Source: an archaeon (GTDB taxonomy: Archaea; Iainarchaeota; Iainarchaeia; Iainarchaeales; 1-14-0-10-31-34). Taken from it: a DNA stretch of 61,160 nucleotides. Shown here one piece after another: positions 2,152 to 47,235 of the stretch; positions within the stretch are counted from its first letter, which is position 1, and each line of letters starts with the position of its first letter. Under the pieces are notes generated by a model. The model saw only the letters and a program-made list of their open reading frames with translations. It did not search any database and was not told the DNA's origin. Both the position numbers and the translations under genes were made by a program. The stretch is from assembly GCA_043819075.1 (NCBI GenBank), contig JBDRFE010000029.1:1-61160 (forward strand), in the 5' to 3' direction.

Positions 2152-3966
2152 GTGTTTAATTTAAAGCCTGATTTAGAGAAATTCCTTGTTATTTTAATTA
2201 TTGTTAATTTTCTTGTTATTGTTTTTCCTTTATTTCAGTTTCCTCTCCCCCAAAATCTTTACCCTGATTCAGCCCAGCATTACACCATGATTGAATTAAT
2301 AAAAGAAGATTTTAAGTGGGTTAACTATAATCCTGGCTATAGGAAAGCATTTCATTTAATGAGTGCTGTTGTTTCAAATTTCACTTCAGTTGGCATTGCA
2401 ATGGCTTTAGTCACATCATTTTTTGTTGCTTTGCTGATTTTTTTCTCTTTTAAGCTGGCTTTGCTTTTATCCAATGACAGGCTTGTTTCATTGTTCACTG
2501 CATTGCTTGTTTCAGGAATAACTATTGTTTCTGATGTTGGCTCAATTCCAAGCCCTGTTCCCCAGACAATTGGCTTGAGCTTGGGGATTATTTCCATGTA
2601 TTATTTTTTTAAGGAAGACTGGAAGGCAACAGGAATAGCAATCGGATTGTATGCTTTAACCCATACTTCTTTTCTTTATTTTATTGCCTTGATGGCTTTG
2701 GCTTCAGTTACAGAGTTATTCAAAGACAATAAACTAAATAAACTTGTTACTTTTGCAAAATCTTTTTCTGTTGTTTTAGTTGTGGTTGTTTTAACTGCTT
2801 TTCTTTCGCTTTCTGCCAAGATTTCTTTTTTTGATGTTTCCCCAAAAATAGCCATTTTAGGGCATGTTTCCCCTTTAAGTTTTCTTGATGTAACAGCCCC
2901 TTTTGGGATTATTCTTGTGGCTTTTTTCAGTGTTTTTTATTTCAGGAAAAAAATTTTTGAGGAATTAAACCATTTTATTGTGTTTTTGTGGCTTGTTTCT
3001 CCGATTTTGTTTTCCCAGATTTACTGGCTGGAGCTTCAATGGTTTCCAACCCAAAGAACATTAATTTTTATGCTGTTTCCTCTGGCGTTTTTTTCTGCAG
3101 AGGCGGTGTCGTTAATTAAAAACAAAAAAATCCTTTTTGTTCTTTCAGCGGTTTTTCTCCTTTTTTCTTTTTTCAGCCATTTTTATTTTTATGAAGAAAT
3201 GCCAAAAAATGATTTCAAGAAAGTTGTTGGAAAAGAAGACTTGGAAGTGATAAATTTTTTGAAGGAAAAGCCTTTGGACGAAATTGTTGTGGCAGAAAAC
3301 AAGTATAGCTATATGATTATTTTAAGCCACAAAAAACTGTCTTCCCAGAGGAATTTCTGGTTTATTTTAGTTGAAAAAAACATGAACAAACTTCTTGACT
3401 TGCATGATATAAAATATTTTTTGATAGACAAAGACAATTTTGAAAACTTTGAAGTAATTGAAGGGCTGGAAAAAGAATTTGAAAACAAAGAATTTGTTTT
3501 ACTTAAGGTAAAAAAAGAAGTGAAACCTGTGAAAACAGACAGACTGGAGGATTATGTTGTTGCGTTAGTTGCTTTTTGGGATCCAATCCGCACAACACAG
3601 AGCCTGGAGCCAAAATTCTTTAAAATAACCGCAACAGACACAAAAGAAGAAGTCTGTATTCTGGTTTATGATGGGTTAAATGTTTCTCCATGTCCGGAAA
3701 AAATTGACTTTGAAGTGAGCGGAAAAAAAGAAACATTAGTTGAGCTAATGAATTCTTTTAACAAGGAGTACTTTTACTTGAAAGCAGCTTATTTTATCAG
3801 AAAAAAAGAACTTCAAGTTCATCCGGATGAAATTGATTTTTTGGGGGAAGGCCCTTATCACATAACTTATTTAGCTCATACTTATTCCTGGGTAGGTGGA
3901 CCAGAGTACTCTAAGCCAAATCTTTTGATTGGAAAGTTTTTTTGGGATATCGGGCTTAACAGGTAA
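2152..3966 (+). CDS. Polytopic membrane protein, GT-C glycosyltransferase-like, with soluble C-terminal domain
   Basis: GTG start; first TM followed by PDSAQH (D..H loop typical of GT-C folds); about 10 further hydrophobic segments; about 250-aa soluble tail. Confidence 0.5.
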   Translation: MFNLKPDLEKFLVILIIVNFLVIVFPLFQFPLPQNLYPDSAQHYTMIELIKEDFKWVNYNPGYRKAFHLMSAVVSNFTSVGIAMALVTSFFVALLIFFSFKLALLLSNDRLVSLFTALLVSGITIVSDVGSIPSPVPQTIGLSLGIISMYYFFKEDWKATGIAIGLYALTHTSFLYFIALMALASVTELFKDNKLNKLVTFAKSFSVVLVVVVLTAFLSLSAKISFFDVSPKIAILGHVSPLSFLDVTAPFGIILVAFFSVFYFRKKIFEELNHFIVFLWLVSPILFSQIYWLELQWFPTQRTLIFMLFPLAFFSAEAVSLIKNKKILFVLSAVFLLFSFFSHFYFYEEMPKNDFKKVVGKEDLEVINFLKEKPLDEIVVAENKYSYMIILSHKKLSSQRNFWFILVEKNMNKLLDLHDIKYFLIDKDNFENFEVIEGLEKEFENKEFVLLKVKKEVKPVKTDRLEDYVVALVAFWDPIRTTQSLEPKFFKITATDTKEEVCILVYDGLNVSPCPEKIDFEVSGKKETLVELMNSFNKEYFYLKAAYFIRKKELQVHPDEIDFLGEGPYHITYLAHTYSWVGGPEYSKPNLLIGKFFWDIGLNR

Positions 3967-22360: not shown

Positions 22361-25300
22361 CTAGTCTGTTTCTTCTTCTTTCTCAACTTTTTTCAGGCCT
22401 TTTATTTTCTGGCTTTTCCCTGTATTTTTTCCTTCAGCTTTTTCAGCTTTTTTTGCTTCTTTTTCCATTTCTTTTTCAACTTCTTCGTCGCTTAACTCTG
22501 TTTTTTCTTTTTGTTCATCTATTTTAAGCCTTTTCAATACAATGTTCAAAAGCTTTTTTTCTATTTCTTTGTTGTCTTTTTTTGTGAGTTCACTTAAAGC
22601 GTTTGCAACTTCTATTGCATACTTCATGTACATTCTTTTTTTTGCTTCTTTTTCTTTTTCCCTTTTTTTTCCAATAATATGCCTTGCAATTCTTCTCCCT
22701 GAATCCATTAAAGCTAATCTCATTTCTTCAAGTATTTCAGCTTCATCTGAAATTGCCTGTTTTCCTGCTGAAGTGTAAGGAATGTGCACTGAAATCATGT
22801 TAATAAAAACAGTTAAAGGCGCTTCATCAATGTTTTGTATCCCGTATCTTTTCCAGTCAATTGTCTGAACAGCTTTTGTTATTGCACAGCCTCCTGAATC
22901 AAATAATAACGGAGCTTTGTTTGCAAAACGCATTACCTCCATTTTTTTGAGGTTTTCTTCTTCTGAGTTGTTTCCGTTTCCAAGAGCCCTTCCGGCGTTT
23001 CCCCCGAATGCAACTGCAACTTCTACTTGAAATGGAAAGCCCCCACTATAAACCTGGGCTTTTCTTGTGATTACTTTAAGGAATTCAGGCTGGACAATTG
23101 ACTTCAATGAAGCTTCAATTTGTTCTTCTCCTATAGGGCTTAATCCATCTGTTGTCGGGGCAATAAAATTAATTGACTTGAATGCCTTTATCACTTCTTC
23201 TGAGTCATTCCACTCCATTTTTTTCGGATCCATGTTCATGTCAAATGAAACCGTTTTAGTTATTTCTTCTATTGCTTTATCTCCCATTCTGTCAAAAGAA
23301 TTCTTTAAAAAAGAGCTTACTTTTCTTCCATCAGAGTATTTTGCCATTGTAACTAATTCGTCTACTGTAACTCCTTTTGGATGAGGCTGCATTTCTTTTG
23401 GTGCATCAGGAATTTTATCTGAAGTCCTCTTAAATAATGTTTTTTGGCCCATTGGGTCAATTAAGCTTATTTGTGCATGAGGGTTGGCTATTGCAGTCCT
23501 TCTGATGTATTCTAATGGCCCTTGCTCTGAAATCCTGTATAAAACATCTTTTACTTTTGCTTTTATTGCAAGGCCTTTGAATGGTTTGTCTATTTCTTTG
23601 AAGTTCTCTATTTTTGGCGTGTTTTTTTTCTGGTCAATTGTTAACTCCAGTGAAAAAGCTTTTCCTTTTCCTGTTCCAGAAATTACCTGAACAGGCTTTC
23701 CTGTTGTTGTCTGGGAATACATTGTTGCTCCTGCTGCACCAATTCCCTGCTGGCCTCTTGACTGCACCATTCTGTGGAATTTTGTTCCTGCAAGCAACTG
23801 GCCTAAAGCTTTGCCTACTGTGTCTTTTGTTAATCCAGGGCCATTGTCTTTGATTGTTATTTCATAATATTCTGTTCCTAATTCCTGTATTTTTATTTCT
23901 ATTTCTGGAAGAATGTTTGCTGACTCGCACGCATCTAAAGAATTATGCAAACAAATTGCTCCATAGCCTCCAACAAAGTTTTCATCTTTTTCAACAGAAT
24001 AATCGTAAACATATTCGTTTTCTTCCGGAATTCTTTCTTCTATTTCACTTATTTGCAGCAAACCTAAATCTCCTCCAATAAACCTTGCCGCTTCTTCGGA
24101 AATTCTTGCTTCATTTATTTTTAATGAAACCATTTTTTCGTAGCTGACTGTTTGCTGTCCTCTTTTGTTTATTGCCCATTTGAGTTTTGGTTCAATTACT
24201 GCTTCAATGCCCCCAAGTTCCATCGGAAAAAAGTTTAATGGAGAATTTTTTTGGTTAGTATAAAATTCTATTCTGTAGTTTTTCCCAAAGCTTGCTTTTT
24301 TTCCTGCTACAATTCTTTCTTCAGCTTCTTTTTCACTGGAACTGTAAGAATAGCCTAAACCTGATAAAAGATATTGGATTCCAATAGAAAGTTCTTCACT
24401 GGCTGTGGCTAAGACAATTTTCTCTTTTAAATTAAAATCTCCATTTAAGAGTTTCCTAAAAATCTTTGTTGAGGGATAGCCATCTCCTACTAAATATGCA
24501 AACAAGAATTCTTTTGCAAATTCTTCTGAAACACTAAAAACAATGCTGGGAATTCTTTTTTTTCTTGCTCCAAAACCACATTTAAAAATCTTCGTTAAAA
24601 TAAAAGCGACAGTTTTTGATGGTATTTCAACATTTACTGCTGTTCTGTGGGCTTTCCTTTGAATTGGTTTTAAACCAAAGATTTTTTCTGTTAAGAACGC
24701 ACAATATTCAATTAGTTCTTTTTCATGTGCTCCAAAAGATAAAGTAGAGCTTGCCATGGTTTTTCGTGTGCTTCCTTCAGCAATATATAAACCCAAAAAT
24801 CGCATTAGTTCTTTTGTTAAAATCATTTTTGTATTTAATTTATATTTGCAATGCCTTGCTCCAATCCTGCATTCATAAAAAAGTTTTATTTCTTCATCGT
24901 TCAATATTTTTAACAGTCTAATAGGAAGCCTGTCACATTTCATATAATTTCTGTAGAAATCGTAGTGCCTTTGTTTTGGCGTCAGTTGTGACTTTATTTT
25001 GTTTTTCAGTTTTTCATTTTGATAAAGGAGTTTTTTTACTCCGAAAACACTAAATTCCCCTAATTTTTCATCAGACAGTTTTAATGCTTCTTCTAGAAGA
25101 TTGATTTCTTTTTTTGTCTCTTCAATCCAAGACTTTCTTGGCACTACAAGATAATCCCCTGTATTCAGTTCCTCTGCTTTCATTTCAGTAACTTTCCCTT
25201 CTCTTAAACTGAATAGCCCATGATGTTTTGTTGCTTCGACTGTCCTGTTTCCAACTGTTTTTATTTTGAATATTTTTTCTCCTGCTTTCATTTTGTGTCT

Positions 25301-25747
25301 GTGAATCGATTTTACTGGTTTAAAATTTAATTTGTTTGTTTGCCTGTCGAAACACAAAACTTCAAACTTTTTAAAATCACGCAATGATTCAACGTCTTGT
25401 TTTTGGGAGTATTCAAAACCATTTTCTTCCATTAAACCATTAACTATTCTTCCTATTCTTTCAATTTTTACTTCTCCGTTTTCTCTTATTGCTGTCGGAG
25501 TATCAGTTGTAACGCTGTTAGTAGTATATTCGTGGATTATTGTTGTCAGAGTCCTTATTTTTCCTGTTAATCCAAGCATCTGCTTGTTTTTTTTGAAGAA
25601 TTCTGCAACAGAATGTTCTTTGAATTCTTTTGCAAGAGTTTCAGCAGTGATTTCTTTTGATTTTGCCTCTGTTTTTTCTGCTAAAGCTTCTTTCGGGGCA
25701 GTTTCAGGTTTAACTGCTGATGTTTCTTTTGCTTTGTTTTCTGCCAT
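22361..25747 (-). CDS. top6B: DNA topoisomerase VI subunit B, intein-containing
   Basis: HEYTTN/SLDACE split by intein, DNGPG, SRGQQGIG, RFANKAPL; start moved to MAENK. Confidence 0.95.
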   Translation of the reverse strand: MAENKAKETSAVKPETAPKEALAEKTEAKSKEITAETLAKEFKEHSVAEFFKKNKQMLGLTGKIRTLTTIIHEYTTNSVTTDTPTAIRENGEVKIERIGRIVNGLMEENGFEYSQKQDVESLRDFKKFEVLCFDRQTNKLNFKPVKSIHRHKMKAGEKIFKIKTVGNRTVEATKHHGLFSLREGKVTEMKAEELNTGDYLVVPRKSWIEETKKEINLLEEALKLSDEKLGEFSVFGVKKLLYQNEKLKNKIKSQLTPKQRHYDFYRNYMKCDRLPIRLLKILNDEEIKLFYECRIGARHCKYKLNTKMILTKELMRFLGLYIAEGSTRKTMASSTLSFGAHEKELIEYCAFLTEKIFGLKPIQRKAHRTAVNVEIPSKTVAFILTKIFKCGFGARKKRIPSIVFSVSEEFAKEFLFAYLVGDGYPSTKIFRKLLNGDFNLKEKIVLATASEELSIGIQYLLSGLGYSYSSSEKEAEERIVAGKKASFGKNYRIEFYTNQKNSPLNFFPMELGGIEAVIEPKLKWAINKRGQQTVSYEKMVSLKINEARISEEAARFIGGDLGLLQISEIEERIPEENEYVYDYSVEKDENFVGGYGAICLHNSLDACESANILPEIEIKIQELGTEYYEITIKDNGPGLTKDTVGKALGQLLAGTKFHRMVQSRGQQGIGAAGATMYSQTTTGKPVQVISGTGKGKAFSLELTIDQKKNTPKIENFKEIDKPFKGLAIKAKVKDVLYRISEQGPLEYIRRTAIANPHAQISLIDPMGQKTLFKRTSDKIPDAPKEMQPHPKGVTVDELVTMAKYSDGRKVSSFLKNSFDRMGDKAIEEITKTVSFDMNMDPKKMEWNDSEEVIKAFKSINFIAPTTDGLSPIGEEQIEASLKSIVQPEFLKVITRKAQVYSGGFPFQVEVAVAFGGNAGRALGNGNNSEEENLKKMEVMRFANKAPLLFDSGGCAITKAVQTIDWKRYGIQNIDEAPLTVFINMISVHIPYTSAGKQAISDEAEILEEMRLALMDSGRRIARHIIGKKREKEKEAKKRMYMKYAIEVANALSELTKKDNKEIEKKLLNIVLKRLKIDEQKEKTELSDEEVEKEMEKEAKKAEKAEGKNTGKSQKIKGLKKVEKEEETD
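23942..25516 (-). mobile_element. Intein in Top6B (525 aa) with LAGLIDADG endonuclease
   Basis: Starts SVTTDTP after ...EYTTN; ends ICLHN before +1 Ser; LGLYIAEGS and AYLVGDG motifs; YVYDYSV block F. Confidence 0.92.
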
Positions 25748-25757
25748 TAAATCACTT

Positions 25758-26279
25758 TCAGATTTCAATTTCTTTTTCTTTTTCATGCAAAAATGCTTCT
25801 GCAGTTGAATGTGATGCGCCTTCCAACAGCATTTCAACTGCTTTTTTTGCTTTTTGTATTCCCTCTGGGTTGCCTATGATGCAGATTGTTTTTCCGTAAA
25901 CTGAAATAAAAGTTGAAGTTTTTTCCTCTATGTCTTTTCTTGTTTTTCCTTTTTGTCCTATTACTCTTCCTTTTTTTTGCTGGATTACTTTGTCGTTTTT
26001 CCCAATCATTTCTTTTAAGTCAATTATTTCAAGAAAGTAATTTTCTTCTTTTAACAAAAAGGCGTGTTCTGGTGAAAATCCCCTGCCAATTGCTTTAATT
26101 ATGTTAAGTGAAATATAAAAATCTAATGCATTTTCTCCTTCAACATCAACTTCTCCTGAAGCAGAATTCACTTCAATTTTTGTCTGAGTGCGTTTTTCAA
26201 CCTCTTTTCTTGTTTCCCCGTTTTTGCCTATTAAGACTGCAATCCTGTCTTTTGGTATTTTTAAGTATTCCTGCATCAA
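25758..26279 (-). CDS. KH-domain pre-rRNA processing protein (Dim2/Pno1 family)
   Basis: Two KH GxxG loops (LIGKNG, VIGQKG); next to RIO1. Confidence 0.92.
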   Translation of the reverse strand: MMQEYLKIPKDRIAVLIGKNGETRKEVEKRTQTKIEVNSASGEVDVEGENALDFYISLNIIKAIGRGFSPEHAFLLKEENYFLEIIDLKEMIGKNDKVIQQKKGRVIGQKGKTRKDIEEKTSTFISVYGKTICIIGNPEGIQKAKKAVEMLLEGASHSTAEAFLHEKEKEIEI

Positions 26280-32342: not shown

Positions 32343-32780
32343 TACCCAACACCAAATAAATTCTGTTTTTATGTTGCTTTAAATCTTTACAGGGCTTACT
32401 GCCGCTGAAAAAAAATAGGTATTGGGATAATGTGAACTTTTTTTTTGCTATAATGATTACTCCTTGAAAAGATATAATCATTCACAGTTAGTTTTCCGAA
32501 CCCACGGGTTTTTGCCTGAGTAAATTCACTGCCAAAAGAAGCAATGCAGTGTTTTCAATGAAACTGCGGCCTTTTTTTAGGAGAATTCAAAGAAAACAGT
32601 TAAAAAAACTAAGTTAAGTGAATAATATAAAGGAAACCGGTTTAAAAAAAGCGCAAAAACAGGGGAAAAAGTTTGAATAAATAACCGGCAGCCTGGCTTG
32701 GAAAAGCTTTAAATAGTTATTTTGTGTTTGTCTTTAAGTTTTGGGTTAAAAAAAGGAAGTTTTTACAGGGGATTTTTTTT

Positions 32781-35756
32781 ATGGCAGAATATTTTAAGTC
32801 AATCAGGAAAAGAAACAATAAAGTTGTTGCTTTTGACAAGGAAAAAATTGCTCAGGCAATTTTTAAGGCAGCTCAAAGTGTTGGCGGAAGCGACATAGAA
32901 ACAGCCAGAAAGCTTGCAGACAAAGTTGTTTTTGTTTTAAGAATAAAATTTGATTCTGAAACAGATGTTCCTTCAGTTGAACAGGTACAGGACATAGTTG
33001 AAAAGGTTTTAGTTGAAGAAGGCCATGTAAAAACAGCCAAAGCATTCATTCTGTACAGAGAACAGCATGCAAGAATAAGGGAAATGAAGGATACCTTCAT
33101 TGATGTAGAGCATGTAATAGATGAATACCTTAACCAGAATGACTGGAGAGTAAAAGAAAACTCTAATGAAGCATACTCTTTTTCCGGGCTGTTATTGCAT
33201 ACTGCTGGAAAAGTTATTGCAAGTTACGCTCTAACGCAAATTTATCCAAAAGAAGTAAGCGAAGCATACAAAAAAGGACACATGCATATTCATGACTTAA
33301 GCCATGGATTCATTGGATACTGTGCAGGCTGGTCGCTGAAAGACTTATTGGTTAAAGGTTTTGGCGGAGTGGCAAACAAGGTTGACGCAAAACCCGCAAA
33401 ACACTTGGATGTTGTTGTTCATCAGATGGTGAATTTTATCGGCTGCCTGCAGATGGAGTTTGCAGGAGCACAGGCTTTTTCTTCTGTTGACACCTTGCTT
33501 GCGCCTTTTGTTAGGTCAGACAATTTAACTTACAGGCAGACAAAACAATGCATGCAGGAATTAGTTTATTCTTTAAACATTCCAAGCAGATGGGGCTGTT
33601 TCAGCGAGGACACAGAGATTTTAACTGAAAACGGATGGAAACCTGGAAAAGATTTAGAAGAAGGAGAAGTTATTGCAACATTTAATATGGAAAAAGATGA
33701 AATTCAATACCTGCCTGTATTGAAAATGACTAAAGACCATTTCAAGGGAAAAATGTATAACCTGAAAAACAGGATAACCGACCAGTTAATCACCCCAAAC
33801 CACAGGGTGTTAAGAAGAATCCATAATTTTGAGGAAGGAAAATCCCAATCAAAGTATGTTTTAGAAGAAGCACAAAAACTGAAAACAAAAATTCCTTTGA
33901 TTCCTTTAGGTGGAACTTTCAAAGGAAAGGAAATGGACAAGAATCTTGTTAAGTCTCTTGCTTGGATTACCTCTGAAGGAAGCTTATGCAGGAATGAAAG
34001 AATTGCAATTTACCAGTCAGAAGAAATGAATCCAGAAAACTGCAACGAAATAAGAGATTGTTTAGATGAACTTGAAATTCCTTTTGATGAAATGCCAAGG
34101 CAGTCAGGTTTTACAGGAAAAATGAATTGTGTTAGATTCAGGTTAAACAGGCCTGAATCAAGAAAAATCCATGAAGAATTTTTCCCAAATTATGTGAAAG
34201 TCATTCCGAAAAGTTTAAGGAATATTTCTACAGAACTTGCAAGAGAGTTTATAGGCACTTACATGAAAGGAGACGGACATGTGCCAGAAAACAAGATTTA
34301 CACTAAAAAGAAAGAAGATGCTGATTTCTTGCAGGAAATGATAGTGAAAAGCGGATGGGGAAGCACTCTCTACAAAAACAAAAATGGCATTTATGTTGTC
34401 AGGGTAATAAAACACGATTTCACTCAAATAAGTTCAATAACAGAAGTTGATTATGATGGAATTGTCTGGTGTCCTACTACAACCAATAAAACAGTTGTTG
34501 CAAGAAGAAACGGGAAAGTTTTTTTGAGCGGAAACTCACAGTATCCTTTCTCTAATTTAACTTTTGACTGGACTGTTCCGGAAGACCTGAAAAAAGACAA
34601 GGCAATTGTCGGCGGAAAAGAAATGAGTTTTTCTTATGGTGACTGCCAGAAAGAAATGGATATGATTAATAAATCTTTTTTAGAGGTAATGCAGGAAGGG
34701 GATGCAAGCGGAAGAATTTTTACTTTTCCTATTCCAACATACAATCTTACAAAAGACTTTAACTGGGATTCAGAGAACGCTGAATTATTGTTTGAAGTAA
34801 CAGCCAAATACGGCATTCCGTATTTCCAGAATTATGTTGGCTCTGACTTGGATCCAAAAAGCATTCGCTCAATGTGTTGCAGACTTTCCATGGATACAAA
34901 CCAGTTAATTAACAGGCCAGGAGGAATGTGGGGCCCAGGAGATGCAACTGGAAGCATTGGAGTAATAACAATTAATTTGAACAGATTAGGCTTTGAATCA
35001 AAAACAAAAGAAGAATTTTTTGAGAGACTGGCTTATTACATGAATCTGGCTAAAATTGCTTTGGAACTCAAAAGAGAAATAATTGACAAAAATCTTGAAA
35101 ATAATTTAATGCCTTACACTAAAGCTTATCTTGGAACATTCAACAACCATTTTTCTACTATCGGCTTGTGTGGAATGAATGAAGCCTGCGTTAACTTTCT
35201 TGGAAAAGACATTGCTTCCCTTGAAGGAAAAAATTTTGCAATAGAAGTTTTAACTTTTATGAGGAATAAGTGCTTTGAATTCCAGAAAGAAACACAAAAC
35301 CTTTACAATTTAGAGGCAACGCCAGCTGAATCAGCGTCATACCGTTTAGCAAAACTTGACAAAGAATTTCATCCGGAAATTTTTACTGCAGGAAAAGAAA
35401 CTCCTTATTTAACTAATTCATCCCAGCTGCCGGTTGATTTTACAGATGATGCAATTACAGCAATAATGCATCAGAATGACTTACAGCCGTTATACACTGG
35501 TGGAACAATTTTTCATACTTTTTTGGGGGAAAAAATAAGTTCAGGCAAAGCCTGCAAGCAGTTAGTGAAAAAAATTGCTGAAAACACTAAACTGCCTTAT
35601 TATTCTATTACTCCAACGTTTAGTATTTGTCCAGTTCATGGTTATGTTAAAGGAGAGCATTTCACTTGCCCTGTGGCGGTTTCGTCCGCCAGTGACGACG
35701 CAGGGCATAAAGCCCAGCTGAACGAAAAAGAAATTGCAAAGGAGGCAATAATATGA
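32781..35756 (+). CDS. nrdD: Class III anaerobic ribonucleoside-triphosphate reductase, large fragment (ATP cone, intein, no glycyl-radical loop)
   Basis: ATP cone, HIHDL, YCAGWS, SMCCRL, EATPAES, ITPTFSIC..HG; ends before any R..GY motif. Confidence 0.93.
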   Translation: MAEYFKSIRKRNNKVVAFDKEKIAQAIFKAAQSVGGSDIETARKLADKVVFVLRIKFDSETDVPSVEQVQDIVEKVLVEEGHVKTAKAFILYREQHARIREMKDTFIDVEHVIDEYLNQNDWRVKENSNEAYSFSGLLLHTAGKVIASYALTQIYPKEVSEAYKKGHMHIHDLSHGFIGYCAGWSLKDLLVKGFGGVANKVDAKPAKHLDVVVHQMVNFIGCLQMEFAGAQAFSSVDTLLAPFVRSDNLTYRQTKQCMQELVYSLNIPSRWGCFSEDTEILTENGWKPGKDLEEGEVIATFNMEKDEIQYLPVLKMTKDHFKGKMYNLKNRITDQLITPNHRVLRRIHNFEEGKSQSKYVLEEAQKLKTKIPLIPLGGTFKGKEMDKNLVKSLAWITSEGSLCRNERIAIYQSEEMNPENCNEIRDCLDELEIPFDEMPRQSGFTGKMNCVRFRLNRPESRKIHEEFFPNYVKVIPKSLRNISTELAREFIGTYMKGDGHVPENKIYTKKKEDADFLQEMIVKSGWGSTLYKNKNGIYVVRVIKHDFTQISSITEVDYDGIVWCPTTTNKTVVARRNGKVFLSGNSQYPFSNLTFDWTVPEDLKKDKAIVGGKEMSFSYGDCQKEMDMINKSFLEVMQEGDASGRIFTFPIPTYNLTKDFNWDSENAELLFEVTAKYGIPYFQNYVGSDLDPKSIRSMCCRLSMDTNQLINRPGGMWGPGDATGSIGVITINLNRLGFESKTKEEFFERLAYYMNLAKIALELKREIIDKNLENNLMPYTKAYLGTFNNHFSTIGLCGMNEACVNFLGKDIASLEGKNFAIEVLTFMRNKCFEFQKETQNLYNLEATPAESASYRLAKLDKEFHPEIFTAGKETPYLTNSSQLPVDFTDDAITAIMHQNDLQPLYTGGTIFHTFLGEKISSGKACKQLVKKIAENTKLPYYSITPTFSICPVHGYVKGEHFTCPVAVSSASDDAGHKAQLNEKEIAKEAII
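33597..34535 (+). mobile_element. Intein in NrdD (313 aa) with compact LAGLIDADG domain
   Basis: CFSEDTEILT after SRWG; ends FLSGN before +1 Ser (SQYPF); LITPNH block B; WITSEGS and YMKGDG motifs. Confidence 0.92.
35667..35719 (+). repeat. GC-rich palindromic repeat unit inside the NrdD 3' tail
   Basis: 35692-35719 matches reverse complement of 46992-47019 at 24/28; 35676-35689 matches reverse complement of 47046-47059 at 13/14. Confidence 0.75.
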
Positions 35757-35923
35757 CTAAATGCAATGCAAACTGTGAAACCTATTCAAGAATAGTGGGT
35801 TATTTCAGGCCGGTGCAGAACTGGAATATAGGAAAAAGAGAGGAATTTAAGGACAGACTAGAATACACTGAAAAAAAATCAATGAACACCCAGTTCAAGA
35901 GCGCGGAAAAACCCAAGTGCTGA
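35753..35923 (+). CDS. Separately encoded NrdD glycyl-radical segment (56 aa; not in ORF track)
   Basis: MTKCNANCETYSRIVGYFRPVQNWNIGKREEFKDR...; GGAGG SD at 35741-35745; ATGA overlap with nrdD stop. Confidence 0.92.
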   Translation: MTKCNANCETYSRIVGYFRPVQNWNIGKREEFKDRLEYTEKKSMNTQFKSAEKPKC

Positions 35924-35959
35924 TTTTTTTCTTTTTTTTCTTATTTTTTTGGTGTTAAA

Positions 35960-36658
35960 TTGATTTTAAAAGGATTGCAGAAAACAACTTTAATTGATTT
36001 TCCCGGAAAAATTGCATGCACTGTATTTACTGCTGGGTGCAATTTTCACTGCGGTTTCTGCCAGAACCCTGATTTAATTAAAATTAATTCATCTCTTCCA
36101 GAGCTTCCTGAAAAAGAATTCTTTTCTTTTTTAGAGTCAAGAAAAAAATGGCTGCAGGGAGTCTGCATTACAGGAGGCGAGCCAACACTGCATAAAGACC
36201 TTCCGGAATTCTGTGAAAAAATAAAAAAAGCCGGGTTTGAAGTAAAACTAGATTCAAACGGAAGCAATCCATTAATGTTAAAAGAATTAATTGAAAAAAA
36301 ACTGGTTGACTTTATTGCAATGGACATCAAGACTTCAAAAGAAAAATATTCTGAACTCTGTGAAACACAAGTTGATTTAGATAAAATAAATTCAAGCATT
36401 GAATTAATTAAAAACTCTGGCATTGACTATGAATTCCGTTGCACTGTTTTACCTGAATTTTTTTCAAGAGAAGACGCTTTAAAGACTGGTGAATGGCTTA
36501 AAGGCAGTAAAATCTTTGTATTACAGCAGTTCCGCAATAATCTTCCAATGGTTAACCCTGTTTTTTCAAAAAAAGAGCCTTTCACCGAAAAACAGCTGCT
36601 TGAGCTGAAAAAAACCCTTGAACCATTTTTTGATAAGGTTGAAATAAAGAATATCTGA
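35960..36658 (+). CDS. nrdG: Anaerobic RNR activating radical SAM enzyme
   Basis: TTG start; GCNFHCGFCQN, ITGGEP, KLDSNG motifs. Confidence 0.92.
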   Translation: MILKGLQKTTLIDFPGKIACTVFTAGCNFHCGFCQNPDLIKINSSLPELPEKEFFSFLESRKKWLQGVCITGGEPTLHKDLPEFCEKIKKAGFEVKLDSNGSNPLMLKELIEKKLVDFIAMDIKTSKEKYSELCETQVDLDKINSSIELIKNSGIDYEFRCTVLPEFFSREDALKTGEWLKGSKIFVLQQFRNNLPMVNPVFSKKEPFTEKQLLELKKTLEPFFDKVEIKNI

Positions 36659-41582: not shown

Positions 41583-43886
41583 ATGGGAACAGTTTATGCT
41601 CTTGCTTCAGGAAAAGGCGGAGTGGGGAAAAGCCTGGCTTATGATGAATTTGTTAGCTTGTCTAATGGTTCTGTTATTCAAATAGGTCCATACATAGACA
41701 AACTGATTGAAGAAAGAAAAGAAGAAGTCAAACAATTAATCTGTAAGACGACTGAAGGAAAAGAAGAAATATTTGAAGTGCTGCAGCCTTCCACAGACTT
41801 AATTCTGGACACTGTTGAATTTAATGCTGAAAAACAGGAAATTATTTCTGAAATAAATCTTCCAGTTGCCTTGATGAGAAAGCCGGCTCCAAAAAAATTA
41901 ATTAAAGTTGAGTGTGCAGCAGGAAGCATTTCTGTTACTCCAGAGCACAAATTCATTGTGATGAGAAAAGGAAAGCTTGAAAAATTAAGGGCAGATGAAA
42001 TAAAAGAAAAAAAAGATTATCTTGTATTGCTGAACCAGTGCAATTCTTTTGAATTCCTTGAAGAAAAGATTTCAGCTGAAGCTGCTGAATTGTTAGGTTA
42101 TGTCACTGGAGACGGATACATGGAAGGCTATAAAATCCATGTTTTTTGTTCAGATAACAGCCTTCTTCCAAAAATAAGAGAAAACTTTATGGCTGTTTTT
42201 GGTTCATATAAAGAAAATGTTTCAAGAAACTTGCACAGAATTTCTTTTTTCAGAACAGGAACAGTGAAAGAATTGTATGAAAAATGTGGAGTAAAAATTT
42301 CAACTGCAGGAAGCAAGGAAGTCCCATCAGAATTATTTAACTCTTCAAATAATTCAGTGGCGGCTTTTTTGAGGGCGCTGTTTGACTGTGACGGTTCAGC
42401 CCACGTTTCCAGAAGGCAGATAGAATTTGATTCAAAAAGCAAAAAACTTGTTTTTCAGGTTGCATCCCTTTTAAGGACAAGATTTGGGATACTATCCCAG
42501 ATAAAGCCAACATTCAAAATTGCCAGAAACGGAAAAATGAAGGAAAAAGGAGAATACTGGAGAATGCATTTAACAGGAAACAACGCAGCAAAGTTTGCTG
42601 AATTTATCGGGTTCAACGATTCGGGAAAACAAGCAAGAATGATGGAACAGCTTAACAGCAGTAAAGCAGTAAACACAAACATTGACGTTTATCCTGTCGG
42701 AAAAATATTGAAACAAATCAGGCAAGAATCAAACATTTCTGCGCCAGCAATCGCAAAGACAATGAATTGTTCAAAGCAGATGATTTACGAATATGAATGG
42801 GAATATTACGCTTTATCAAAAGAAAAAGTAAAAAATTACATTAATGCATTTGAATCTCTTGGGGTTGAAAGCAAAATATTGAATTGGCTTAAATATTTAG
42901 TTAACTCTAATCTTGAATTCAGAAGAATTGAGAAAGCCAATGAATTTGAATACTATCATCCTTTTGTTTACGATTTTCAGGTTTCAGATAAAGGAGGCCA
43001 TTTTACTCATGCAACCGGAATAATAGTTTCAAATACAACTATTACAGCAAACCTTGGGATTGCATTGGCTCAAAAAGGAAAAAGAGTTTTATTGGTTGAC
43101 GCAGACATTGCAATGGCAAACTTAAGCCTGTTATTAGGAATGCAGTCTTCTCCGATTACTTTGCATGACGTTTTATTAGGCGAGAGTTCGTTGCAGGATG
43201 CAATCTATGACGGTCCAGGCGGAGTATCTTTTGTTCCATCTGGTTTAAGCTTTGAAAGCTATAGAAGAGTTGATTCAGCTAGATTAGCCGGAGTAATTGC
43301 TTCAGTTAAAGACGATTTTGACTACATTTTATTGGATGCGCCTGCAGGAATTGAAACAAACGTCATGTCAGCCTTAAGCGCTTCAGATAATGTTATTTTA
43401 ATTACAATGCCTATTTCTCCTTCAATTGCAGATGTATTAAAAACAAAAATTGTTGCTGAAAGGCTTGGAGCAAAGCCAATTGGCTTGATAGTTAATTTTG
43501 TGAGAGGCGAAAGAGGGGAAGTCATGCCAGAAGACATAATGAAAATGCTTGAACTGCCAATTTATGGTTTGGTTCCATACGACGAAGACATTAGAAAGTC
43601 TTTTATGCGCGAAAAAATAATGCCCACAATTTTATTTAAGCCAAACTCTAAAGGAGTTGAAGCAATAAACCTTGTGGCAGAAAAACTTACAGGAGTTTCA
43701 ACTGTAATCAGAATGAAAAAAAAGGGGCCCATAACAAGATTTTTAAACAAGTTGTTTTCTATCTTTAAAAGGAAACCAAAACAGGAAAAACAATTAAAGG
43801 AAAGAATACAGGAAAAAAAAGAAGAAGAAAGCTATGAGGATTTGCCTGAAATAAGCGAGGAAAGCATTGAAATAGGGCAAGAGTGA
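41583..43886 (+). CDS. minD: MinD/ParA-family ATPase, intein-containing
   Basis: SGKGGVGK/TTITANLG Walker A split by intein; VLLVDADIAMANL, YILLDAPAG, VPYD motifs; charged tail. Confidence 0.9.
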   Translation: MGTVYALASGKGGVGKSLAYDEFVSLSNGSVIQIGPYIDKLIEERKEEVKQLICKTTEGKEEIFEVLQPSTDLILDTVEFNAEKQEIISEINLPVALMRKPAPKKLIKVECAAGSISVTPEHKFIVMRKGKLEKLRADEIKEKKDYLVLLNQCNSFEFLEEKISAEAAELLGYVTGDGYMEGYKIHVFCSDNSLLPKIRENFMAVFGSYKENVSRNLHRISFFRTGTVKELYEKCGVKISTAGSKEVPSELFNSSNNSVAAFLRALFDCDGSAHVSRRQIEFDSKSKKLVFQVASLLRTRFGILSQIKPTFKIARNGKMKEKGEYWRMHLTGNNAAKFAEFIGFNDSGKQARMMEQLNSSKAVNTNIDVYPVGKILKQIRQESNISAPAIAKTMNCSKQMIYEYEWEYYALSKEKVKNYINAFESLGVESKILNWLKYLVNSNLEFRRIEKANEFEYYHPFVYDFQVSDKGGHFTHATGIIVSNTTITANLGIALAQKGKRVLLVDADIAMANLSLLLGMQSSPITLHDVLLGESSLQDAIYDGPGGVSFVPSGLSFESYRRVDSARLAGVIASVKDDFDYILLDAPAGIETNVMSALSASDNVILITMPISPSIADVLKTKIVAERLGAKPIGLIVNFVRGERGEVMPEDIMKMLELPIYGLVPYDEDIRKSFMREKIMPTILFKPNSKGVEAINLVAEKLTGVSTVIRMKKKGPITRFLNKLFSIFKRKPKQEKQLKERIQEKKEEESYEDLPEISEESIEIGQE
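41631..43034 (+). mobile_element. Intein in MinD Walker A (468 aa) with LAGLIDADG and HTH-like insert
   Basis: SLAYDE start; VTPEH block B; LGYVTGDG and RALFDCDGS; VYDFQV block F; ends IIVSN before +1 Thr. Confidence 0.92.
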
Positions 43887-46878: not shown

Positions 46879-47061
46879 GCGAAGATATTGCTTCGTTGCT
46901 CGCGCTCGAAACCGTTAACGCGAAGCATATACGGCTTTACGCCGCAGCCGTCACGTTCGGCTGGTGTACGCGCACCACGTAAAGTGGTGCTAGCACGGCT
47001 TTATGCCGTGCGCCGTCACACTCGCACGGAAGCGAGTCGGTGCTCGCGGGCGAAACCGCGA
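46879..47061. repeat. GC-rich tandem hairpin array abutting the tRNA-Val 3' end
   Basis: At least seven stems, e.g. GCACCAC-GTAAA-GTGGTGC, GCACGGC-TTTAT-GCCGTGC, CAGCCG/CGGCTG, ACTCGC/GCGAGT, TCGCGG/CCGCGA. Confidence 0.8.
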
Positions 47062-47133
47062 TGGACCTGGGCGGAATCGAACCGCCAGTCTTCTGCACGT
47101 CAAGCAGACGTCATGCCACTAGACTACAGGTCC
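47062..47133 (-). tRNA. tRNA-Val(GAC)
   Basis: Minus strand: acceptor GGACCTG/CAGGTCC, anticodon arm TCTGC-TTGACGT-GCAGA, T arm GGCGG-TTCGATT-CCGCC, discriminator A. Confidence 0.95.
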
Positions 47134-47235
47134 AAAACCCTTTCCAAAGGGTTTAACGAAATGCACAGGGCAAGCCTGTGCTGCTTTTTTAAATTAACAA
47201 AAATATGGCTTAAAATCTTGTGTTAGGTAAGCTTT

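Follow-up and report, generated by a model that had tools for sequence, protein, structure and literature searches.

A class III ribonucleotide reductase with its glycyl-radical domain encoded as a separate small chain on an Iainarchaeota contig

The subject of this work is the nrdD-nrdG locus of a class III (anaerobic) ribonucleotide reductase (RNR) on contig JBDRFE010000029.1 (assembly GCA_043819075.1), from an archaeon of the Iainarchaeota. The whole stretch analysed, 61,160 nucleotides (nt) long, is referred to as the window. At this locus, the large chain NrdD ends without a glycyl-radical domain, and this domain is encoded by a separate open reading frame (ORF) lying between nrdD and the activase gene nrdG. 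The features of the locus are the following:

32781..35756, + strand: nrdD, the large chain, about 991 residues from the ATG at 32781 (PF13597, E = 8e-162)
32799..33071, + strand: ATP-cone domain (PF03477, residues 26-116 of the 1010-residue ORF, E = 1.4e-21)
33597..34535, + strand: intein in NrdD between RWG and SQYPF, 313 residues, with LAGLIDADG_3 and intein_Nterm matches
34869..34886, + strand: finger loop SMCCRL, double-cysteine type (motif classes from PMC9669993)
35628..35672, + strand: zinc knuckles of the large chain, C-P-V-H...C-P (Cys 35628-30, His 35637-39, Cys 35667-69)
35673..35753, + strand: translated C-terminal tail of the large chain (V AVSSASDDAGHKAQLNEKEIAKEAII), a linker remnant with an open frame in relatives and a low predicted local distance difference test (pLDDT) score in the model of the relative L003
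35674..35720, + strand: in-frame copy of a two-hairpin repeat of about 48 nt (TGGCGG-TTTCGT-CCGCCA and GCAGGGC-ATAAA-GCCCAGC)
35741..35745, + strand: Shine-Dalgarno (SD)-like GGAGG for the small chain, 7 nt before its ATG and within the tail codons K-E-A
35753..35756, + strand: ATGA stop/start overlap
35753..35923, + strand: small chain, glycyl-radical domain, 56 residues, in a frame other than that of nrdD and aligning to residues 608-645 of Thermotoga maritima NrdD (4COI)
35762-64, + strand: Cys4 of the small chain, fourth zinc ligand by alignment (sequence comparison)
35774-76, + strand: Cys8 of the small chain, a variable position
35798-35800, + strand: Gly16 of the small chain, radical glycine by alignment (RIVG16Y; sequence comparison)
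35924..35951, + strand: T-rich tract of 28 nt, seen in the sequence only, directly after the small-chain stop and 9 nt before the TTG of nrdG
35960..36658, + strand: nrdG activase, radical S-adenosylmethionine protein of NrdG2 type with a TTG start (TIGR02495, 214 bits against a cutoff of 131)

The nrdD frame is open from a GTG at 32724 (ORF 32724..35756, 1010 residues), and the true start is likely the ATG at 32781 (MAEYFKS...), which matches the start in L003. The large chain scores 540 bits against PF13597, 981 bits against NF006126 (cutoff 548) and 462 bits against TIGR02487 (cutoff 326), which places its barrel in the NrdD family of class III RNRs above the curated cutoffs. The finger-loop cysteine, expected in an MGCR or MCCR motif, is present, and M385, C386 and C387 are invariant in the alignment. 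The C-terminus of the ORF reads ...ICPVHGYVKGEHFTCPV (also given as ...SICPVHGYVKGEHFTCPV), followed by the tail AVSSASDDAGHKAQLNEKEIAKEAII and the stop. Hence nrdD stops inside the second zinc knuckle, with C-P-V and a 26-residue tail. The R-x-x-G-Y motif is absent from the large chain, and the single such motif in all six frames of the window is found in the small ORF; barrel and radical motif are thus on different polypeptides at this locus.

The small ORF reads MTKCNANCETYSRIVGYFRPVQNWNIGKREEFKDRLEY..., the predicted N-terminus of its product being MTKCNANCETYSR, and its radical loop has the motif YSRIVGYFRP. In the Pfam profile NRDD, the large ORF is matched to position 526 (residue 984, the V of CPV) and the small ORF over positions 526-562 (E = 2.3e-10). 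Since the break lies at position 526 in both, the two ORFs are consecutive pieces of one family profile, about 83-86 nt apart. PF01228, the Gly_radical family of the pyruvate formate-lyase (PFL) C-terminus, gave no match in the small chain, and PF13597 was the sole family at E <= 0.01. The product is a small free-standing protein made of a glycyl-radical domain, and nrdG, encoding the cognate activase, follows 36 nt downstream. The ATG placed over the large-chain stop implies that the translation of both chains would be coupled. The last tail codons (K-E-A/V) are simply the SD of the small gene. An earlier note on this DNA, written from the letters alone, had described an NrdD without radical motif, followed by an overlapping ORF with its own GGAGG and ATGA and then by nrdG; the sequence and the Pfam matches agree with it. 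The same note had asked for a check of the junction for an indel fusing the two frames. None was found: the junction is spanned gap-free by contigs from three independent groundwater studies, with 9 single-nucleotide polymorphisms and 0 gaps over 7960 nt (X1), 0 differences over 493 nt (X2), and 1 difference and 0 gaps over 239 nt (X4).

The small gene is far from unique. The earlier note had allowed for similar small fragments in databases, and the homologue search indeed found at least 325 proteins of 41-79 residues sharing the domain, 120 of which were retrieved. Of these 120, 113 have a cysteine at position -7 relative to the Y/F of YSR, and in 80 of the 120 just 2-3 residues stand ahead of it, which indicates a conserved start codon immediately at the break point. 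In 14/14 split loci examined, the small-ORF ATG is preceded by an SD-like motif at a distance of 5-10 nt. For the small ORF, the ratio of nonsynonymous to synonymous substitution rates (dN/dS) amounts to 0.06-0.08 at a dS close to 1. The order large chain, small chain, nrdG is kept in L001/L002, L003, L004, L006, L015, L250 and L251, and also in the bacterial loci L018, L029, L037, L058, L063 and L078. The relation of the two frames varies, from the ATGA overlap (window, L001, L250) to the same frame after a TAA (L003) and a different frame after a 5-nt gap (L004). Taken together, the conserved SD and starts, the low dN/dS and the varied frames point to a selected, separately initiated gene and not to an error or a fixed frameshift. 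The proposal that the radical domain is permanently a separate protein is therefore upheld by the conserved ATG and SD, the selection on the small ORF, the number of homologues, and the presence of the split in several independent lineages.

The large chain was surveyed in its 120 closest homologues (67-86% identity). The radical domain is absent from all of the eight closest (77-86% identity). Records nearest to the sequences of this locus carry the labels Micrarchaeota, Diapherotrites, Woesearchaeota or Nanoarchaeota. In the whole set, about 28 large chains lack the radical domain, about 83 are fused to it and eight are fused with inserts of 7-25 residues exactly between CP and the last zinc cysteine. 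These inserts mark the loop from CP to the last cysteine as an insertion hot spot, within which the fission lies. A fission in this surface loop would have created the split. In a tree built from the last 260 residues of the large chain of 76 loci, the split state needs at least five changes, and well-supported branches force three of these. The window falls together with the split L001 and L004 and the fused L005, L026 and L060 (support 99), while the Lentisphaerota form a split clade of their own and the Thermodesulfobacteriota, with an Anaerolineae, another. On this tree, the same break point appears to have been reached several times or moved by gene transfer.

Several side observations concern the relatives. 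Insert-bearing fused NrdDs are found in L026 (3444-3533), L071, P0176, P0194, P0201, P0213, P0225, P0234 and P0238. Among the small chains, 34 of the 120 (P0001-P0120) end in a C-terminal cysteine (...KC, ...IC, ...VC), and some fused relatives have instead a C-terminal extension of about 100 residues or a glutaredoxin domain (PF00462: P0146, P0196, P0204). These terminal cysteines and glutaredoxin domains may be linked to the reductant pathway of MCCR-type NrdD.

The position of the break has a consequence for the zinc site. Fused relatives share the motif CPxHGY-x10-CPxCGKx[C/T]EVYSRIVGY. An alignment of the L003 read-through to 25 fused enzymes shows no variation at C637, C650 and C687, the last of which is a small-chain residue, and almost none at H640. 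All four conserved ligand positions are present in the window, three in the large chain (C, H, C) and one in the small chain (Cys4). As the large chain holds C/H/C and the invariant cysteine is Cys4 of the small chain, a zinc site completed in trans is what the alignment predicts for this subclade. The earlier suggestion of a zinc site formed across two chains thus holds as a prediction for the subclade, in line with the cysteine of the 113 small homologues, and fails as a general rule, as the type represented by L004 departs from it.

As a structural proxy for the complex, AlphaFold2 was applied to the 738-residue read-through that L003 provides naturally, with Gln in place of its two in-frame TAA codons. 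The model has a mean pLDDT of 84.6 and a predicted template modelling (pTM) score of 0.81, with a pLDDT of 50-65 in the tail and 76-87 in the radical domain. Its best structural matches are solved class III RNRs, with template modelling (TM) scores up to 0.77. The model fits a flexible linker remnant and a normally docked radical domain.

Based on these findings, the locus very probably encodes an obligate two-subunit class III RNR, with a zinc site completed in trans and translationally coupled genes. The 56-residue chain would dock into the barrel where the C-terminal domain of a one-piece NrdD sits, and the shared zinc site would tie it to the large chain. Its glycine loop would then insert beside the finger-loop cysteine. 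The glycyl radical would be installed on the small chain by the adjacent NrdG, and catalysis would follow the course of one-piece NrdD with a double-cysteine (MCCR) finger loop (PMC9669993). Some points weigh against this interpretation. The AlphaFold2 proxy is a zinc-free single chain of a relative and is no test of a two-chain assembly. In three metatranscriptomes of the same study, the only matches were low-complexity poly-T stretches, and the locus was not covered. Moreover, CPxC is kept in the large chain of some split relatives (L004, P0133, P0140 and others), so that the trans site is not general; the small chain of L004 still begins MTECGKEC despite the CPxC in its large chain.

Other explanations of the locus were considered. 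The sequence is metagenome-assembled, and L003 has an additional in-frame TAA in its barrel, two facts that would suit a broken nrdD, either a pseudogene or an assembly artefact. An assembly error was rejected because three independent studies show the same junction, and a pseudogene is contradicted by the strong purifying selection on the small ORF, the hundreds of homologues, the conserved synteny including nrdG and the split shared by all closest relatives. A broken gene is accordingly regarded as the least credible reading of all. Only slightly more credence, and still very little, is given to the rejoining of both ORFs into one chain by a bulge-helix-bulge (BHB) intron of about 71-86 nt, by frameshift, by bypass or by protein trans-splicing. 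It is true that excising 35673-35758 (86 nt) yields an in-frame CP|KC junction, that one weak in-frame BHB-like pairing exists (35686/35757) and that stable hairpins lie within the insert. However, this pairing is rich in A/U and G.U, is one of four chance-level matches of which a single one is in frame, and appears degenerate by eye in L003, while the tail of L004 is unrelated; the BHB intron was rejected as weak and unconserved. Bacteria, in which BHB splicing is absent, share this layout, and in every relative the NrdD frame runs on through the tail for 26-52 codons, which a spliced-out segment would not require. The ATG and SD of the small gene are also conserved. A programmed frameshift or bypass was rejected since the frame relation varies among relatives in a way that fits no single frameshift, and neither a slippery heptamer nor matched take-off and landing codons were seen by inspection of the junction sequence. 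As for a split intein, a 26-residue tail and the three residues at the small-chain N-terminus are far too short.

The last alternative accepts the split and differs in the role given to the small chain, which would be exchangeable, as the earlier note had proposed, and a consumable cartridge, cheaply replaced after O2 cleavage at the glycine and perhaps activated by NrdG off the enzyme. Remaking a 56-residue chain is indeed far cheaper than remaking an intein-bearing one of 991 residues, and fission recurred independently at the same site. On the Lentisphaeria chromosome CP091727.1 (L078), the small gene and its SD are repeated in tandem, in 2.7 copies with a period of 206 nt and 98% identity. 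Among the best viral-contig loci (L085-L164), 68 of the 79 motif-bearing ORFs are lone small ORFs. Lone copies between Sak4 and SSB genes are also found in the prophage-like modules of L030 (2905-3126) and L033 (3366-3671), from a lineage (Lentisphaeria) with its own NrdD split. These tandem and lone viral or prophage copies would fit a consumable subunit and also a plain auxiliary gene. On the other side, the zinc-bridged interface argues for tight binding, the window has a single copy co-translated with the large chain, and neutral fission at a permissive loop accounts for the data equally well. Since the large chain itself lacks a radical domain, the small chain is the regular subunit and not a substitute of the GrcA kind, described below. 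The cartridge is judged unlikely, and so is its broader form, in which the glycyl radical of many anaerobes would be carried by a consumable subunit of 5-7 kDa and NrdG could activate the free peptide. If it were true, the peptide would clip on the barrel through the trans zinc site and be discarded after O2 cleavage, the large chain surviving. The tandem amplification in L078 and the lone phage-borne copies would then raise the supply of a limiting part.

Two relatives mentioned above show further irregularities. The tandem array of L078 (3487-4043) is placed between the split nrdD and nrdG, and the large chain of this locus looks frameshifted in the long-read assembly. In L003, the extra in-frame TAA within the nrdD barrel (3698-3700) stands where the window has Met; it may reflect a sequencing error, mark a pseudogene or indicate a further split.

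The proposed two-subunit enzyme resembles one-piece NrdD/NrdG in its ATP-cone, barrel, finger loop, zinc knuckles, RxxGY loop and adjacent nrdG, and the predicted fold matches. The references for one-piece NrdD were those of phage T4 (1H78/1H7A), T. maritima (4COI/4U3E), Prevotella copri (8P23) and Streptococcus thermophilus (9DCA). In contrast to these, the last 45 residues or so (from the final zinc cysteine onward, T. maritima 608-645) are a separate product, and the predicted zinc site is divided between the chains. To our knowledge, GrcA is the only described free glycyl-radical protein. Escherichia coli GrcA/YfiD and phage T4 Y06I are autonomous glycyl-radical "spare part" proteins for PFL (PMC8683613; PMC13450708). 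Like GrcA, the small chain appears, from its sequence, to be a small free-standing glycyl-radical domain that would be activated by a cognate radical-SAM activase. Nonetheless, GrcA is of the PFL type and occurs alongside a complete PFL, whose tail it replaces after cleavage by O2, whereas the small chain is of the NrdD type and the adjacent large chain has no radical domain, so that no complete enzyme accompanies it at the locus.

Other RNRs are also known in pieces. The class II NrdJa/NrdJb of Pseudomonas aeruginosa is reported as a split RNR (PMC4520616). The nrdA of phage Aeh1 is split by the mobE endonuclease, and phage nrdD can be broken by introns, inteins and fragmentation (PMC3653736). 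As in those systems, the catalytic subunit is in pieces that work or are presumed to work. The breaks are elsewhere in those cases, or due to introns or homing endonucleases, and none has been reported with the class III radical domain as a conserved small subunit. A search of open-access papers and preprints found no description of a class III RNR in which the radical subunit has a gene of its own. Split NrdD is apparently a widespread, undescribed variant, to which this locus adds a break inside the zinc knuckle and a translated hairpin repeat.

In the reviews and structures consulted, class III RNR is one chain, and its radical domain has to leave the barrel in a swinging movement before it meets the activase. 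A radical domain in the form of a free 56-residue peptide makes this swing-out step directly accessible to experiment. According to a 2026 review, it is yet to be determined whether detachable radical parts occur in glycyl-radical enzymes beyond PFL, a question on which the split NrdD bears. Moreover, such small ORFs are easily overlooked, in which case the large chain passes for a truncated pseudogene. In metabolic models of DPANN archaea, this misreading would erroneously delete the synthesis of deoxynucleoside triphosphates (dNTPs).

The tail of the large chain, which the earlier note had called unrelated, turned out to consist of a short linker remnant and, in frame with it, one copy of a hairpin repeat that is dispersed over other loci. 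Positions 35692-35714 match the reverse complement of 47019-46997 at 21/23 positions, and 35676-35689 match 47059-47046 at 13/14. GC-rich hairpins with 7-bp stems (GCW-N4-N5-N4-WGC) occur five times in the window against 0.055 expected; three of the five flank the tRNA-Val gene and one is in the tail. The other copies of the family are given on one line:

46945..47181, - strand: other copies of the hairpin family, on both sides of tRNA-Val (47060-47134), fold z = -3.3

A scan of metagenomes found the two-hairpin module, in the form CGCGG-TTCCGT-CCGCG-AG-N6-TGCACGGG-AYAAR-CCCGTGC, at sites other than nrdD in several low-GC contigs. These copies are intergenic and often adjoin tRNA genes. Seven copies share the two-hairpin consensus, with compensatory changes at four pairs. 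The relatives L250 and L251, with large chains 85-86% identical, have the split without the module, and their tails read PLEVKEKIKEVILK and similar; without its 48 nt, the window tail reads PVEKEIAKEAII. L001 has two in-frame copies, 72 nt apart. With several copies, conserved hairpins and an empty site, the insert in the tail behaves as a dispersed palindromic repeat. The presence of the split without the module in L250 and L251 indicates that the split came first and that the repeat was taken up in frame later, into a dispensable tail. An Rfam search with the hairpin region of the tail and the tRNA-Val array gave no match above noise, and the minimum free energy fold of 35640-35800 was no better than that of shuffled sequences (z = -0.74). 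The fused insert of L026 (AEVSAEPTSDAS...) was considered as a related element; it is similar to the window tail at the protein level, its DNA has no hairpins, and homology is not claimed.

The in-frame repeat illustrates the tolerance of the junction and is a rare translated palindromic repeat in an archaeal gene. Rickettsia palindromic elements (RPEs) are reportedly inserted in frame into protein-coding genes, an observation ascribed to Ogata and co-workers in 2000. The tail repeat is likewise a dispersed palindromic repeat translated in frame in a tolerant surface segment of an essential protein. It differs from RPEs in its archaeal host, in its sequence family and in the intergenic location of its other copies by tRNA genes. 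In other low-GC metagenome contigs, the hairpin family adjoins tRNA-His, tRNA-Lys and tRNA-Val genes (L209, L242, L176/L168). The array next to tRNA-Val in the window may serve as a signal for processing or termination, or may be a mobile palindromic element.

Some minor features of the locus and its surroundings can be added. The T-rich tract at 35924-35951 may be an archaeal oligo-T terminator or attenuator parting nrdD and the small gene from nrdG. The nrdD of L003 has no intein at the site occupied in the window (...PSRWGSQYPF...), and the window intein ends in ...SGN|S. The nrdD relatives carry 0, 1 or 2 inteins, with lengths of 671-1503 residues. The window, probably from a DPANN archaeon, has a GC content of about 35% and is archaeal in its gene content, encoding MCM and an intein-bearing topoisomerase VI B. 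The latter (22361-25837, - strand) and a ParA/MinD-like ATPase (41583-43886, + strand) are the two further intein genes of the window.

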